Made by a program: the position numbers and the translations under genes. A DNA stretch of 59,239 nt from positions 1-59,239 of the IMG/VR virus record IMGVR_UViG_3300030104_003308, one strand, 5' to 3'. The notes beneath the pieces were generated by a model that saw nothing but the letters and a program-made list of their open reading frames with translations, did not search any database and was not told where the DNA came from. This stretch comes from a virus (taxonomy: Duplodnaviria > Caudoviricetes). Every line of letters begins with the position of its first letter. Positions within the stretch are counted from its first letter, which is position 1. Below are positions 13,040 to 20,877 of this stretch, piece after piece.

Positions 13040-14300
13040 GTTACGTGGTGATACTTGGTACGCAATGGGTACAATCACTCGGCTTGATGGTAAGCGAGTG
13101 AGGGTCAAGCGTAGTACGAAGTTCACTTATAATCAAAAAAATTATGCCAAGTCTTTGTTGCCGACTATACAAGCTGAAGTTATTAAGCAGACTTGTGAGC
13201 CAAAGAAAGAAAAACGTAGCGACTACCTCGTTGCCGACATGAATAGTCGGTACTTAGGTAGGCCAGAAGGTTTCTTGTCATCAGCAAACGGATATATTCT
13301 GAATGATTTTGATAGGTTCTTTGGCAAGAGGGAGGTCTTGGACTTGGATATTAAGGAAGTGTATAGCCATTTCAATCGGAAGGGGACGAAGCCGTCTTCC
13401 ATTCGTAAAGAAATGGCGACACTCATAGCCAGTATTAACTATAGTAAGATGAGGGGATTTCCTTACATCATCTTTAGAGATGAGCAAGGTAAGGAAGTGA
13501 ACCTCGTCAAACCTCCCGAAGGTGAGGGTAGGTTAAGATGGTTAAGCATGAAGCAAAGGGATCACTTGATCTCTTGCTGTGATGAAGCAATCAAAGACCT
13601 TGTTGCTTTTCTATTCTACACTGGAGCGAGATTAGGCAATGCCTTTGAACTCACAGACCAGAATATAATAGGTGATGAGGTTATGCTTTACACAAGGAAG
13701 GGTAGGGCAAGGAAAGTTTCTTGGAGAAAAGTTCCAATTCTATCAGCCATCAAGCCAATGATGAGGGCTAGGTGTGGTGGTGGTCTTGTCTTTCCAAATC
13801 CATTGGGGACTTCATGGAGAAGGTCTGGTGTCAATAATGATGGAAGGAAAAGTGACAACACTAACTTCTATCACTTTTGGAATGATGCTTGTGAGAAAGC
13901 AGGGATCACAGACTTTAAACCCCATGATGCGAGGCATACTTTTGCTTCGCTTCTAAGACAGAATGGAGCAGGGCTAGATGAGTTGCAAGAGTTGTTAGGT
14001 CATGCCAGTTTGGAGATGGTCAGACGCTATGCACATCTTGCTCCTTCTAAATTGAAGAGTGTTATTGAACGCTTGGATGCTACCTCGGATGTGTCTGTCC
14101 CAAATCTGTCCCACGAAAATGTGGTGCTGACGGAAGGAATTGAACCTTCGACCTCTGCTTTACCAAAGCAGTGCTCTACCACTGAGCTACGCCAGCATAA
14201 GAGAGTAGATATTAACACATCAAAAGTTGCTGACAAGAGTACGTTAGATTTCATTACCAAGGACAAAAATACTAATCCTTTGGCTAAAAAACCCCCCTAA
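13026..14300 (+). CDS. int: Tyrosine integrase
   Basis: YTGAR, K, HDARH, LLGH, RRY catalytic set (R-K-H-R-H-Y). Confidence 0.93.
   Translation: MLKLRLRGDTWYAMGTITRLDGKRVRVKRSTKFTYNQKNYAKSLLPTIQAEVIKQTCEPKKEKRSDYLVADMNSRYLGRPEGFLSSANGYILNDFDRFFGKREVLDLDIKEVYSHFNRKGTKPSSIRKEMATLIASINYSKMRGFPYIIFRDEQGKEVNLVKPPEGEGRLRWLSMKQRDHLISCCDEAIKDLVAFLFYTGARLGNAFELTDQNIIGDEVMLYTRKGRARKVSWRKVPILSAIKPMMRARCGGGLVFPNPLGTSWRRSGVNNDGRKSDNTNFYHFWNDACEKAGITDFKPHDARHTFASLLRQNGAGLDELQELLGHASLEMVRRYAHLAPSKLKSVIERLDATSDVSVPNLSHENVVLTEGIEPSTSALPKQCSTTELRQHKRVDINTSKVADKSTLDFITKDKNTNPLAKKPP
14122..14196 (-). tRNA. tRNA-Thr(GGT), 75 nt with encoded CCA
   Basis: GCTGGCG TA GCTC AGTGGTA GAGC A CTGCT TTGGTAA AGCAG AGGTC GAAGG TTCAATT CCTTC CGTCAGC ACCA folds into a full cloverleaf. 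Confidence 0.95.
14209..14236 (-). promoter_or_regulatory. Sigma70 promoter of the tRNA
   Basis: TTGTCA-N16-TAATAT, 12 bp upstream of the tRNA 5' end. Confidence 0.65.
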
Positions 14301-18301: not shown

Positions 18302-18379
18302 CGCTGAGAGCGACTTGAAGCGAGGCGTGATTCAGCCCCTTGTGGGGGCTGAAACTAAGCCGAGAAGAAACAAGCGAAC

Positions 18380-18550
18380 ATGAGTGACAAGCGAAGCGTT
18401 TATAAATTTAAAACGATTGGTCAGCAGAAAAAGATTGACGACAATCGCAAGAAATTCCCAGAGGTAGCTAGGATAATAGATGACATTCGAAAGTATTTTC
18501 CAGGGGCTAAAGTTGTTGGGATTTACAAGAAGGGATATTTCCGAAAATAA
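18380..18550 (+). CDS. Small basic hypothetical protein, 56 aa
   Basis: MSDKRSV...NRKKFPEVARIIDDIRKYFPGAKV; hand translated. Confidence 0.55.
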   Translation: MSDKRSVYKFKTIGQQKKIDDNRKKFPEVARIIDDIRKYFPGAKVVGIYKKGYFRK

Positions 18551-18602
18551 AGTTTATTATTTAAGTGGTAAGAGAAAAAAAAAGGAAGGAAGGAAAGTAA
18601 AT

Positions 18603-18683
18603 ATGTTAATCTGTCCAAGATGTTACAAAGAAATAATTGAAGGCAAGGGTCATATATGTCAAAGGAAGGAATTAAAAAAGTAA
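18603..18683 (+). CDS. Zinc-finger micropeptide
   Basis: MLICPRC...GHIC; purine-rich SD. Confidence 0.45.
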   Translation: MLICPRCYKEIIEGKGHICQRKELKK

Positions 18684-18826
18684 ACCCAGTAGCAAGGGTT
18701 ATGTTGCAGTTACGCAGACCCAAGCAAGTCGTACCCCCAAAGAGAGGGGGTAAGTCTTACAAGCGAAAGCCTAAACTTCCAACCAATCTTTTATTACGCG
18801 AAGAGGTTTTGCTAAAGCACGACTAA
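18656..18826 (+). CDS. ArfA-like basic microprotein, 56 aa
   Basis: MSKEGIKKVNPVARVMLQLRRPKQVVPPKRGGKSYKRKPKLPTNLLLREEVLLKHD. Confidence 0.55.
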   Translation: MSKEGIKKVNPVARVMLQLRRPKQVVPPKRGGKSYKRKPKLPTNLLLREEVLLKHD

Positions 18827-20684
18827 TCTCTTCAACATCTTTGCCATCAAGTGCCATGTCTTTAGCTTTCTGTTTGGTGCTTGCTGAAGAAACAATACAT
18901 CTCTCGTCTGTTTTATTGTTTGAAGCTAAACCAACCCACTGAACTCTGTCATGGCTATCTGTCCACTCCCTAACTTTTCCATACCTAATCTCCATCACCA
19001 TGTATAGTTGGAAGTCTGGCAGTAGTTTCGTAGATAGCATAGGCCAGACAGGTCTGTCGTATGATCCATCAAAGATTGCAGCATTTTGTTTTGCCGTTTC
19101 TTCGTCTTGATAAACTTGAGTCACACGTATCTGAGTTTCCAGAACTGTTAATTGATTTGTTGATCCAGCTTCTCTTCCAACCCCAGTCTCACTTGGCTTG
19201 TTGCTGTGGTGAACAAGGATAACAGCATAACCAGAGTTACGCAGACGTACTGCAAGCTGATTGACCTTCGCCCATTCGTCTGCTGAATTTTCCATTAGAC
19301 CTGGGTAAGCTGTTCTTATGGTATCAATCACAATAGCGTCTGGCTTAATGTGATCTACCCAACCTTGCAATTCTATGAGCCCTTCTTTAGTACGAAGGTT
19401 CATCTCATGGTTATCGACAAAGGGTGTCCAGATTTGCAAGCGATCTTGTGTATCGCCATGTACTTGTTTCATTTCAAGCAATCGTCTGGCAATGGTAGAC
19501 ATACCCATCTCGAAGTCGAGATACAAAACCTTTGAAGGTTTTGTTATCTCAAAACAACCAAAGTATTTCCTTCCACTAGCCAATGAAGCCATAGCGTTTT
19601 GAACGAATAAAGATTTACCATGTCCACTATACCCATACACTTGCACGATTGAAGCAGGGGTAAGCCAAGGTTCTATAAGATATTGACGAGCTTCTGACTT
19701 ATCAGCCAATGCTTGAGCATCTTCCATAAGAATAAGTCTTCTCTGTCTGCCATTCCCATTCGCCTCGTCTTTTGCTTCCTCGATCTTCTTTCTGTGAATA
19801 TACTCACCCTTCTCATCAAATCGGTCTGGGTGATTACGTCTTTCACTTTCCTCCATGCTCCTAACTGTAGCTTCAAACTCAGCTTCTTGCAGTTGTTCTT
19901 CAAAAAACTCAGTCATAAAAGCATATCCCCTTACCCTTAACTCAGCCCCAAAGTTTCCTTCAAGAATTTGTTCAGAGATATACTTCATTACTCTTTCATT
20001 CCTACCATTACCAACACCAGTTGGTATCTTCATTGTGCTAGGGTAGGTTTCTCGGACGTACTTAGCAGTGCGATCCCATTCCGAAATAAATTCTTGGGGG
20101 TTCATGGCAACAACATCAGACAAGTCCAACTCATTAAAGCTGAAATCACCCTCAGTCTTTTCTTTAAGTGTCGGTTTCCAGTCTTTCCAAATTGGCATCT
20201 CGTCTGGGTCTAAGTCAAAGCCTCTTGGAATATCCCACTTATAATTAGTAGAAGGAGGGACTAAAGCATAAGACCCATCCCCCCTAAAATCTAACCCATT
20301 GATACGAGGCCAGTCTGCTCCTCTGCTGTTGACACCAGCTTTCGGTCCACGTCTGATGCCGTCTTGTGGATGTTTGAAATAAAGGTGATGACCTCTCTTC
20401 GTCTTAGCACGGAAAGGTGACTTCATCCCTGCGTCAAAAGCAGAGTGAAGTGCTTCTTCATTGTCACAATCTACGACAACCACTCCAGATATTGCACCAG
20501 TTATGAGAGCGATAGGGTCTTCTGGATGTTTTGTCCACCATTCAGTGACCTGTTCCTCCGTTGGTAGTGTGTCTTGGAACTCCTTCCACTTTATTCTGGG
20601 ACGTTTTGTTTCTGGACGGCATGGGATAACAGACCACCCCATCTCTAAATATTCAAGTGCTGCTCCCAAGTTTACGTTGTTCAT
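18771..20684 (-). CDS. Bifunctional primase-polymerase fused to RecA-like (AAA_25) helicase
   Basis: GWSVIPC, VVVDCD, GHHLYF, DFRGDGSY..PPS; Walker A GYSGHGKS, YLDFEM, IVIDT, LVHHSNK; GAGGAG SD. Confidence 0.88.
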   Translation of the reverse strand: MNNVNLGAALEYLEMGWSVIPCRPETKRPRIKWKEFQDTLPTEEQVTEWWTKHPEDPIALITGAISGVVVVDCDNEEALHSAFDAGMKSPFRAKTKRGHHLYFKHPQDGIRRGPKAGVNSRGADWPRINGLDFRGDGSYALVPPSTNYKWDIPRGFDLDPDEMPIWKDWKPTLKEKTEGDFSFNELDLSDVVAMNPQEFISEWDRTAKYVRETYPSTMKIPTGVGNGRNERVMKYISEQILEGNFGAELRVRGYAFMTEFFEEQLQEAEFEATVRSMEESERRNHPDRFDEKGEYIHRKKIEEAKDEANGNGRQRRLILMEDAQALADKSEARQYLIEPWLTPASIVQVYGYSGHGKSLFVQNAMASLASGRKYFGCFEITKPSKVLYLDFEMGMSTIARRLLEMKQVHGDTQDRLQIWTPFVDNHEMNLRTKEGLIELQGWVDHIKPDAIVIDTIRTAYPGLMENSADEWAKVNQLAVRLRNSGYAVILVHHSNKPSETGVGREAGSTNQLTVLETQIRVTQVYQDEETAKQNAAIFDGSYDRPVWPMLSTKLLPDFQLYMVMEIRYGKVREWTDSHDRVQWVGLASNNKTDERCIVSSASTKQKAKDMALDGKDVEEISRALAKPLRVIKDWLEV

Positions 20685-20877
20685 GTGCTTTCTCCTCAAA
20701 GTATATATTAAAATTGAGATCAGGGTCAGCACTCTTCAGCTTTTCAAGGAAGGTTGAACGAATATGCCTTTGTCTAATCCAACCATAAGGTGCAGTTCTT
20801 TGCACTCCACAAATTTCTGCCACTTTTCTAGCACCACCCATATCTCTTATAAGTTTTCTTATGTTTAGTTGTTTCAT
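20653..20877 (-). CDS. Cro-like HTH protein
   Basis: LIRDMGGARKVAEICGVQRTAPYGW. Confidence 0.75.
   Translation of the reverse strand: MKQLNIRKLIRDMGGARKVAEICGVQRTAPYGWIRQRHIRSTFLEKLKSADPDLNFNIYFEEKAHEQRKLGSST

Follow-up and report, generated by a model that had tools for sequence, protein, structure and literature searches.

A small open reading frame (ORF) at positions 18656-18826 (+ strand) of a viral genome was analyzed, because it had been proposed to encode a relative of the ribosome rescue factor ArfA. The window, i.e., the whole stretch of DNA that was analyzed, is the complete 59,239-bp record IMGVR_UViG_3300030104_003308, with a CheckV completeness of 100 and a G+C content of about 41%. 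The ORF consists of 56 codons and a TAA stop codon. It starts with an ATG, and a Shine-Dalgarno-like motif, AAGGG, is located 6 nt 5' of the start codon (18645..18649, + strand); the motif was read from the sequence and presumably serves translation initiation. The ORF is the last of three small ORFs on the + strand (18380-18550, 18603-18683 and 18656-18826) that converge on a primase/helicase gene on the minus strand (18771..20732), which was identified by matches to the Pfam families Prim-Pol (2.6e-30) and AAA_25 (5e-28). The first-pass annotation, which had been made by a model from the sequence letters, described the product as an unannotated ArfA-like microprotein with a tail antisense to the primase gene. 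The ORF, its ATG start, the length of 56 amino acids and the quoted peptide were matched exactly, and residues L41-D56 plus the stop codon indeed lie wholly within a 56-nt antisense overlap with the primase gene (18771-18826). The results described below establish a conserved phage gene, and they suggest that its product belongs to a phage family that is distantly related to ArfA.

Conservation and Coding Constraint of the Small Gene

The closest named relative of the window phage is Roseobacter phage CRP-810, with 68.7% nucleotide identity across the primase gene. A primase search of viral contigs revealed 101 relatives, and 81 related loci, CRP-810 included, were scanned for the small ORF. 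The same ORF was present at the same place in the four closest primase relatives (L003, which is the contig of L083, and L004, L005 and L006; 88-97% primase identity), and it was not found at the other 77 loci. The ratio of non-synonymous to synonymous substitution rates (dN/dS) was calculated over the 32 non-overlapping codons and was 0.29 for the window and L003, 0.10 for the window and L005, and 0.10 for L003 and L005. The remaining two frames of the same part had values of 0.59 and 1.16, and both contain stop codons. More distant copies were detected at unrelated phage loci, i.e., beside thyX and an integrase gene (L084, L085) and upstream of a large ORF (L086), which, judging from its N-terminal sequence, is probably a T7-like RNA polymerase gene. 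Because purifying selection is specific to the ORF's own frame and family members are present at unrelated phage loci, 18656-18826 is a genuine conserved gene. It is an accessory gene of a marine phage.

A Family of Small Phage Proteins with an N-P-x-A Motif

Four alignments were used in the analyses: the window protein with its closest relatives (A1, six sequences), 98 family sequences (A2), 121 representatives of the family (A3), and a diverse set of ArfA proteins (A5). The profile search with A1 in 5.8 billion proteins retrieved 99 proteins of 42-93 amino acids, among them the window protein with an E-value of 3.6e-25; an identical protein is also present, nameless, in a gene-call collection (P0001). 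The profile search with A2 in a library of 1.84 billion proteins, clustered at 50% identity, resulted in 120 representatives with E <= 0.001, 23 of them with E <= 1e-10.

The consensus core of the family is N-P-V-A-K/R-A-M-L-x-x-R-x-x-x-Q-V-V-P-P-K-K-G, and it is followed by a basic tail. N10, P11, A13, R20 and P27 are invariant across the 98 sequences of A2, in which Q24, V25 and V26 are conserved to at least 90%; among the 121 representatives N10, P11, A13 and R20 are conserved to at least 90%. The window protein carries every invariant residue of the family, the Q-V-V-P segment and the basic tail, and family members have lengths of about 42-90 amino acids. Three parts can be distinguished in it. 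The conserved N-terminal motif N10-R20 (N-P-V-A-R-V-M-L-Q-L-R) is encoded at 18683..18715 (+ strand) and contains the invariant residues N10, P11, A13 and R20 as well as a predicted helix. It is followed by R21-P28 (R-P-K-Q-V-V-P-P; 18716..18739, + strand), which in a gapless register is aligned with ArfA residues 25-29, i.e., the residues that pair with the β-sheet of release factor 2 (RF2). Next is the basic motif K29-K40 (K-R-G-G-K-S-Y-K-R-K-P-K; 18740..18775, + strand), which carries the ArfA signal described below.

The AlphaFold2 model that was calculated with the family alignment had a mean predicted local distance difference test value (pLDDT) of 78. It contains a confident helix at residues 11-19 (mean pLDDT of 96 for residues 11-20), an extended basic stretch and a tail helix at residues 43-54. 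A Foldseek comparison of the model with the PDB did not reveal any match, which is expected for a mostly extended model of 56 residues. Pelagiphages reportedly encode the ribosomal protein bS21, and this identity was also considered; neither the window protein nor the family members had such a Pfam match.

Part of the family has already been captured by models to which no function has been assigned. DUF7230 (PF23876) was matched by 27 of the 98 and by 28 of the 121 family sequences (best E-value 2.3e-7), and, in the PHROGs collection, phrog_20887 and phrog_37108 were matched by 25 and 15 of the 121 representatives, respectively. DUF7230 and the two PHROGs probably describe the same phage family. 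A few members that were scored singly against DUF7230 reached 15.5-16.1 bits, under the cut-off of 27. The window protein itself did not match DUF7230 at E <= 10, whether searched as protein or in six frames, nor the two PHROGs at the thresholds used, and a literature search for DUF7230 retrieved no paper that mentions it. When 185,579 species genomes were scanned with the most conserved pattern of the family, two stretches matched and neither was confirmed as a cellular copy. Within the limits of one single pattern scan, the family looks phage-specific.

Relationship of the Window Protein and Its Family to ArfA

The E. coli ArfA core that had been given in the first-pass annotation corresponds to residues 11-44 of the RefSeq arfA product (b4550), and the gapless alignment to it is real: residues 7-40 of the window protein are aligned with ArfA residues 11-44 with 10 identities and 16 positives in 34 positions. 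BLASTP found the same register over 18 residues, with 8 of 18 identical and an E-value of 0.03 for a single comparison. In this register N10 is placed on ArfA N14 and S34-Y35 on S38-Y39, and the spacing of 20 residues between Asn14 and Lys34 is retained. A homologue search with E. coli ArfA gave only close enterobacterial sequences, and, therefore, a diverse ArfA set was built. A sample of 401 genomes of Pseudomonadota contained 37 genomes with ArfA, and 25 diverse sequences were used for a hidden Markov model (HMM) of cellular ArfA. The window protein scored 7.8 bits against this HMM, a value that was reached by 7 of 5000 shuffled sequences. The signal resides in the C-terminal half, where the 14 residues K29-P42 scored 7.2 bits against an HMM of the C-terminal half of ArfA (reached by 0.26% of the shuffles). 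The segment K34-G35-K36-G37-S38...R41 is invariant in the 25 cellular proteins; the window sequence R30-G31-G32-K33-S34-Y35-K36-R37 is identical at three of these six positions (G35, S38 and R41), and the others are one conservative exchange of K to R and a swap of K36/G37 to G-K. A separate observation on cellular ArfA was that 7 of 24 sampled frames (L191, L192, L197-L200, L202) end with A-A, e.g., L-M-A-A or L-L-A-A, which recalls ssrA-type tags.

The Pfam ArfA model (PF03889, gathering score 25.5 bits) was matched by 5 of the 98 sequences of A2 and by 29 of the 121 of A3 (E <= 1). The cut-off was exceeded by P0061 (28.6 bits), P0259 (27.8), P0281 (26.7), P0302 (28.7) and an ORF of Caulobacter phage Cr30 (27.2), and others were just below it. 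An HMM search with the ArfA family had been suggested as a check of the first-pass annotation; it was positive for some family members, and for the window protein taken alone the outcome was the lack of HMM support that the same annotation had listed among the refuting findings. Most of these matches cover HMM positions 24-43 (K-K-G-K-G-S-Y-x-R-K), P0061 spans positions 16-44, and P0308 positions 5-43. Next, bridging sequences were defined as sequences that score above all 300 of their own shuffles against both the cellular ArfA HMM and the HMM of the phage family. This was the case for the CRP-212 ORF (41.9 and 15.0 bits, respectively), the Cr30 ORF (28.5 and 17.4 bits) and gp30 of Pelagibacter phage HTVC027P (22.6 and 12.5 bits). 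In addition, the first K of the KGKGSY motif is located 20 residues after the Asn in 21 of the 26 phage members of the KGKGSY type and in 22 of the 25 cellular ArfA proteins, and the Ser-Tyr of the window protein is found at N+24/N+25, as in ArfA. The hhalign comparison of A3 with the diverse ArfA alignment A5 yielded a P of 5e-4 and a probability of 31.6%. In two named neighbour clusters of the ESM Atlas, 19% and 11% of the members have PF03889, which is no more than a lead.

Published data on ArfA (PMC5378476) allow a comparison with its mechanism. ArfA residues 31-48 occupy the mRNA tunnel, nearly half of them are basic, and a version cut at residue 47 is active while one cut at residue 40 is inactive. 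Residues 25-29 undergo backbone pairing with the β-sheet of RF2; Leu19, Leu24 and Phe25 form a hydrophobic patch that binds Trp319, Val198 and Phe217 of RF2; and an N-terminal minidomain with Ala18 at its core activates RF2. In the window protein, 7 of the 18 tunnel-equivalent positions are basic and none is acidic. The Asn is followed by 46 residues, 33 being required, and at least 33 are present in 110 of 116 family members. The window protein and ArfA share a small size with an active part of about 45-55 residues, an Asn near residue 10-14 with the K-K/R-G...S-Y-x-R-K segment 20 residues on, and a basic tail that is long enough for the mRNA tunnel. In contrast, the N-terminal minidomains (N-P-V-A-R-V-M-L in the window protein, D-N-A-I-E-A-L-L in ArfA) are unrelated, and the window protein has no counterpart of ArfA residues 1-10. 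It ends at an ordinary stop codon and shows no sign of non-stop synthesis. A complex prediction of the window protein with RF2_ROSDO and alignment A3 had a score of 0.00 and a mark of 0.32, which speaks neither for nor against an interaction.

Several results weigh against a close relationship with ArfA or against a conserved function. The pairwise match is marginal, as the best gapless score was reached by 20 of 1000 composition-preserving shuffles, and the N-terminal half of the window protein contains no ArfA signal (-1.2 bits, reached by 34% of the shuffles). The window protein did not match Pfam ArfA at E <= 10, neither as protein nor in a six-frame search, and NCBIfam gave one spurious His-rich family and no ArfA match. 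The Pfam scores of the family members stem largely from a motif of about ten residues in a basic, low-complexity context. Further hhalign comparisons were weak (P of 0.046 for A3 and 0.048 for A1 with enterobacterial ArfA, 0.028 for A2 with diverse ArfA), and even the best profile-profile comparison did not exceed the probability given above. The family profile found nothing at E <= 10 in the E. coli genome, only 1 of the 25 cellular ArfA proteins scored above all of its own shuffles against the family HMM, and sequence-profile searches of the PDB did not retrieve ArfA (no hit for A1, one kinase at an E-value of 0.83 for A2). The equivalents of the RF2-binding patch Leu19, Leu24 and Phe25 are V15, which is hydrophobic, R20 and R21. 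All 25 cellular ArfA proteins have an aromatic residue (F/Y) at the Phe25 position, compared with 4 of 116 family members. At the Leu24 position, 105 of the 116 have an Arg. Finally, the literature searches on phage ArfA genes found annotation-level mentions only and no functional study.

Taken together, the comparisons make it likely that the phage family is a distant homologue of ArfA, a connection that runs via intermediates and does not amount to a proof. The family would be a divergent offshoot that grades into ArfA. The description as ArfA-like was therefore upheld for the family, and it has to be restricted in that the ArfA-like signal does not reach beyond the basic C-terminal motif and the RF2 patch is replaced by Arg20/Arg21. 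The part that senses the empty tunnel is plausibly kept; a counterpart of the region that grips RF2 is not recognisable.

ArfA-Like Genes in Other Phages and Their Hosts

Phage genes annotated as ArfA have been described before, and the window gene appears to be a divergent relative in a large, mostly unrecognised family. The PF03889 domain has been stated for gp30 of HTVC027P, which is reported to be expressed at a high level both early and late in infection (PMC12753301). In the analysis performed here gp30 scored 20.2 bits against Pfam ArfA, under the cut-off. Gene g10 of Citromicrobium phage vB_CbaS-RXM was annotated as ArfA in its description (PMC8953757). ArfA is the GenBank product name for RXM g10 and for a gene of Pseudoalteromonas phage J2-1, and RXM g10 scored 33.9 bits against the cellular ArfA HMM. 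A tblastn search with E. coli ArfA retrieved 12 records with E <= 1, including Salmonella phage Arash and Pseudomonas phages pf16 and Y3; three of the 12 were bacterial or host-derived. The annotated phage proteins resemble the window family in the N-P-x-A start and the K-G-K/R-G-S-Y/F tail. They differ from the window protein in that they keep G-K/R-G-S, and RXM g10 also F-R-Q-R, and are detectable with ArfA HMMs, while the window protein has diverged further and is missed by them.

Several members were found in cultured phages without having been annotated as such. In Cr30 (KF301602) an unannotated ORF of 50 amino acids (L090:1444-1596), the bridging ORF with 27.2 bits mentioned above, is flanked by a hypothetical gene and by the gene that precedes the RNA ligase gene. 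ArfA-like ORFs were also detected out of frame within larger annotated genes of CRP-212 (L204:289-414), CRP-9 (L091:2480-2623) and CRP-1 (L089:2033-2215). The CRP-212 and CRP-9 ORFs are located inside acidic stretches of gp38 and gp53, respectively, and the CRP-1 ORF overlaps with gp04. They are either overprinted genes, or the larger annotations are over-extended.

Phages in culture that carry the N-P-x-A type have Roseobacter, Pelagibacter, Caulobacter and Citromicrobium as hosts, and the window phage probably also infects an alphaproteobacterium. A survey reports arfA in 0 of 2,376 Alphaproteobacteria, in 37 of 1,000 Betaproteobacteria and in 699 of 2,704 Gammaproteobacteria, and arfB in 2,022 of the 2,376 Alphaproteobacteria (PMC11633108). 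This is a further difference to cellular ArfA: cultured relatives of the phages that carry the window family infect a class that is reported to be devoid of arfA. Two other release-factor-dependent rescue factors, ArfT of Francisella and BrfA of Bacillus, have little sequence likeness to ArfA, and ArfT works with RF1 or RF2 (PMC6299226, PMC6881298). Both are small, have a basic C-terminal tail and do the job of ArfA with a different N-terminal interface. Their likeness to the window protein would be functional only.

The Leucine-Rich Tail and the Antisense Overlap

The Leu-rich tail L41-D56 is encoded at 18776..18823 (+ strand), antisense to the 3' end of the primase gene. Codons P39-D56, 18 in number, lie at least partly in the overlap; in the ORF's own frame they had 0 synonymous differences versus 4 (L003) and 7 (L005) non-synonymous differences, and the C-terminal residues of the primase on the opposite strand were almost unchanged. 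Because synonymous changes are absent in its own frame while the C-terminus of the primase is conserved, the tail is to be regarded, from this substitution pattern, as a passenger of the primase frame. Family members at other loci lack it: their tails are short and different, and an ordinary stop codon follows shortly after the basic stretch. The Leu-rich tail is probably dispensable.

The RNA-level proposals were analyzed with the same region. Folding of 201 nt was unremarkable (z of -1.29). The minimum-energy and the centroid fold contained a hairpin of 7 bp at 18732..18752 (+ strand), the stem of which (UACCCCC/GGGGGUA) is formed by the codons for Val-Pro-Pro and Gly-Gly-Lys. The stem is unchanged in L003 and L005, and the loop alone varies. 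The hairpin may simply result from the Pro and Gly codons, and no function is claimed for it. A stem of 7 bp is short for an RNase III site. A terminator search found one weak candidate on the - strand (18700-18683) and, beyond the end of the ORF, none on the + strand, and a search of sequencing runs found no RNA run containing the locus sequence. The first-pass annotation had raised control by mRNA truncation and processing of double-stranded RNA just after the core. The passenger character of the tail, the ordinary stops in the relatives and the unremarkable folding speak against this proposal, which found no support.

Neighbouring Genes and Further Features of the Locus

The first of the three small + strand ORFs (18380..18550) encodes a protein of 56 amino acids and is conserved in CRP-810 and in L003, L005 and L006. 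It is probably co-transcribed with the ArfA-like gene. The sole Pfam match of its product was Acb2_Tad1_hairpin (E-value 0.26, 12 bits versus a cut-off of 27), and this assignment was dismissed. In the closest relative, L083 (L083:639-956), the upstream gene extends about 35 codons past the place where it stops in the window; the extension uses another frame and crosses the start of the ArfA-like ORF. The extended frame shows no constraint (dN/dS of 1.16) and is interrupted by a stop codon in the window.

The second small ORF (18603..18683, + strand) has 26 codons for amino acids with a CxxC...HxC pattern, is preceded by a strong Shine-Dalgarno run at 18584-18599 and overlaps with the start of the ArfA-like ORF by 28 nt. 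It was recognised from the ORF and by reading the sequence; it is located within about 107 nt that are absent from the closest relatives L003, L005 and L006, and a Pfam search with its translation gave no match. A G+C-rich hairpin of 10 bp at 18331-18353 (+ strand) is found in the leader of the small-gene cassette (z of -3.2; 1 of 200 shuffles folds equally well). It is retained in L005 and L006 despite changes on both sides of the stem, and, as a T-run follows on neither strand, it does not resemble an intrinsic terminator. Elsewhere in the phage genome, a tRNA-Thr gene (GGU; 14122-14196, - strand) was the sole tRNA or Rfam match.

Discussion

The explanation that is preferred, and to which we assign roughly an even chance, combines three elements: the ORF is a real gene, its product is related to ArfA, and the product binds ribosomes with an empty mRNA tunnel, the last element being one that we infer. 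The protein would have a short helix in its N-terminal part (residues 11-19) and, after it, an extended basic segment from P27 to about T43. Where a broken mRNA has left a ribosome stalled at its 3' end, the basic segment would thread into the vacant mRNA entry tunnel, like residues 31-48 of ArfA, and the conserved N-terminal part would be positioned in the A site and promote release. Release would free ribosomes for phage translation during the infection. The proposal of the first-pass annotation that the phage encodes a ribosome rescue factor is thus carried by the gene and by its link to ArfA, while the rescue as such is deduced from the likeness. A release factor may be recruited, and it need not be RF2, because Leu24 and Phe25, with which ArfA contacts Trp319 of RF2, are replaced by Arg-Arg.

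Two other explanations accept a real protein and differ in its function, and both are regarded as unlikely. One of them is that the protein is derived from ArfA and has been repurposed: it would plug the empty tunnel and either recruit another factor, e.g., RF1, as ArfT can, or block access of transfer-messenger RNA (tmRNA)-SmpB or ArfB, and in the blocking version it would be an inhibitor of translation or rescue and not a rescuer. This would be in line with the Arg/Arg at the Leu24/Phe25 equivalents, which are basic in most of the 116 members, with an N-terminal motif that is conserved more strongly within the phage family than anything it has in common with ArfA, and with the alphaproteobacterial hosts of the cultured carriers, a class in which the survey cited above found arfB in most members and arfA in none. 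However, the Phe25 position is a Tyr in CRP-212, CRP-9 and HTVC027P gp30, and RXM g10 has a Phe together with the F-R-Q-R segment. The aromatic residues that are kept in the bridging members suggest a gradual drift rather than a functional switch, and the β-sheet contact between ArfA and RF2, which is made via the backbone, could survive changes of side chains. The other explanation, a small basic phage protein unrelated to the ribosome, such as a nucleic-acid-binding or packaging peptide, would attribute the ArfA likeness to convergence of a Lys/Gly-rich motif. It profits from the restriction of the signal to about 10-18 residues, from the weak HMM and profile-profile scores of the window protein, from the 86 of 116 family members that have other basic tails without KGKGSY, and from the varied phage contexts of the gene. 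Convergence would not readily account for the identical register between the Asn and the motif in both families, for the same length and N-terminal placement as in ArfA, or for the CRP-212 ORF, which matches cellular ArfA with its high score and also the phage-family HMM.

Two further explanations concern the production of the protein and the existence of the gene. It could be argued that a truncated non-stop mRNA serves as the template of the protein, in that convergent transcription with the primase gene would generate double-stranded RNA and RNase III would cut after the core, mimicking the autoregulation of arfA. The 56-nt antisense overlap is real, the distribution of terminator-like sites (none on the + strand downstream, one weak site on the - strand) means that the transcripts could overlap, and arfA of E. 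coli likewise converges on and overlaps with a neighbouring gene, mscL. Nevertheless, the substitutions in the tail mark it as a passenger of the primase frame, homologues elsewhere end at ordinary stop codons without such an overlap, and the folding is unremarkable with a 7-bp hairpin as the only structure, so that this origin is considered very improbable. Least of all do the results fit a frame that is open by chance, next to and antisense to the 3' end of the primase gene. The ORF is short, overlaps with another gene over one third of its length and lacks a direct family match. Yet the purifying selection is specific to its frame, the profile searches with A1 and A2 retrieved 99 proteins and 120 clusters, and copies are present at unrelated loci, which leaves hardly any probability for chance.

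A more specific idea is offered as a doubtful one: the family could be a phage-only, ArfA-derived lineage in which the patch for the RF2 Trp has been replaced by a conserved Arg-Arg/Lys and which uses an undescribed mechanism, i.e., either a charge-based interface to the release factor or a block of the tunnel that excludes tmRNA and ArfB. If this were true, the phage would take control of ribosome rescue either way.

A practical gain is better annotation, because several cultured phages contain the gene unannotated or hidden under a larger gene that was mis-called, and a peptide of 40-56 residues is easy to synthesise and to test. With respect to the family, the annotated phage ArfA genes are the detectable edge of a far larger family of microproteins (120 clusters at 50% identity), most of which, including the window copy, escape the ArfA model. 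If these proteins act on stalled ribosomes, abundant marine phages would bring a rescue activity, or a block of rescue, that is lacking in their hosts.

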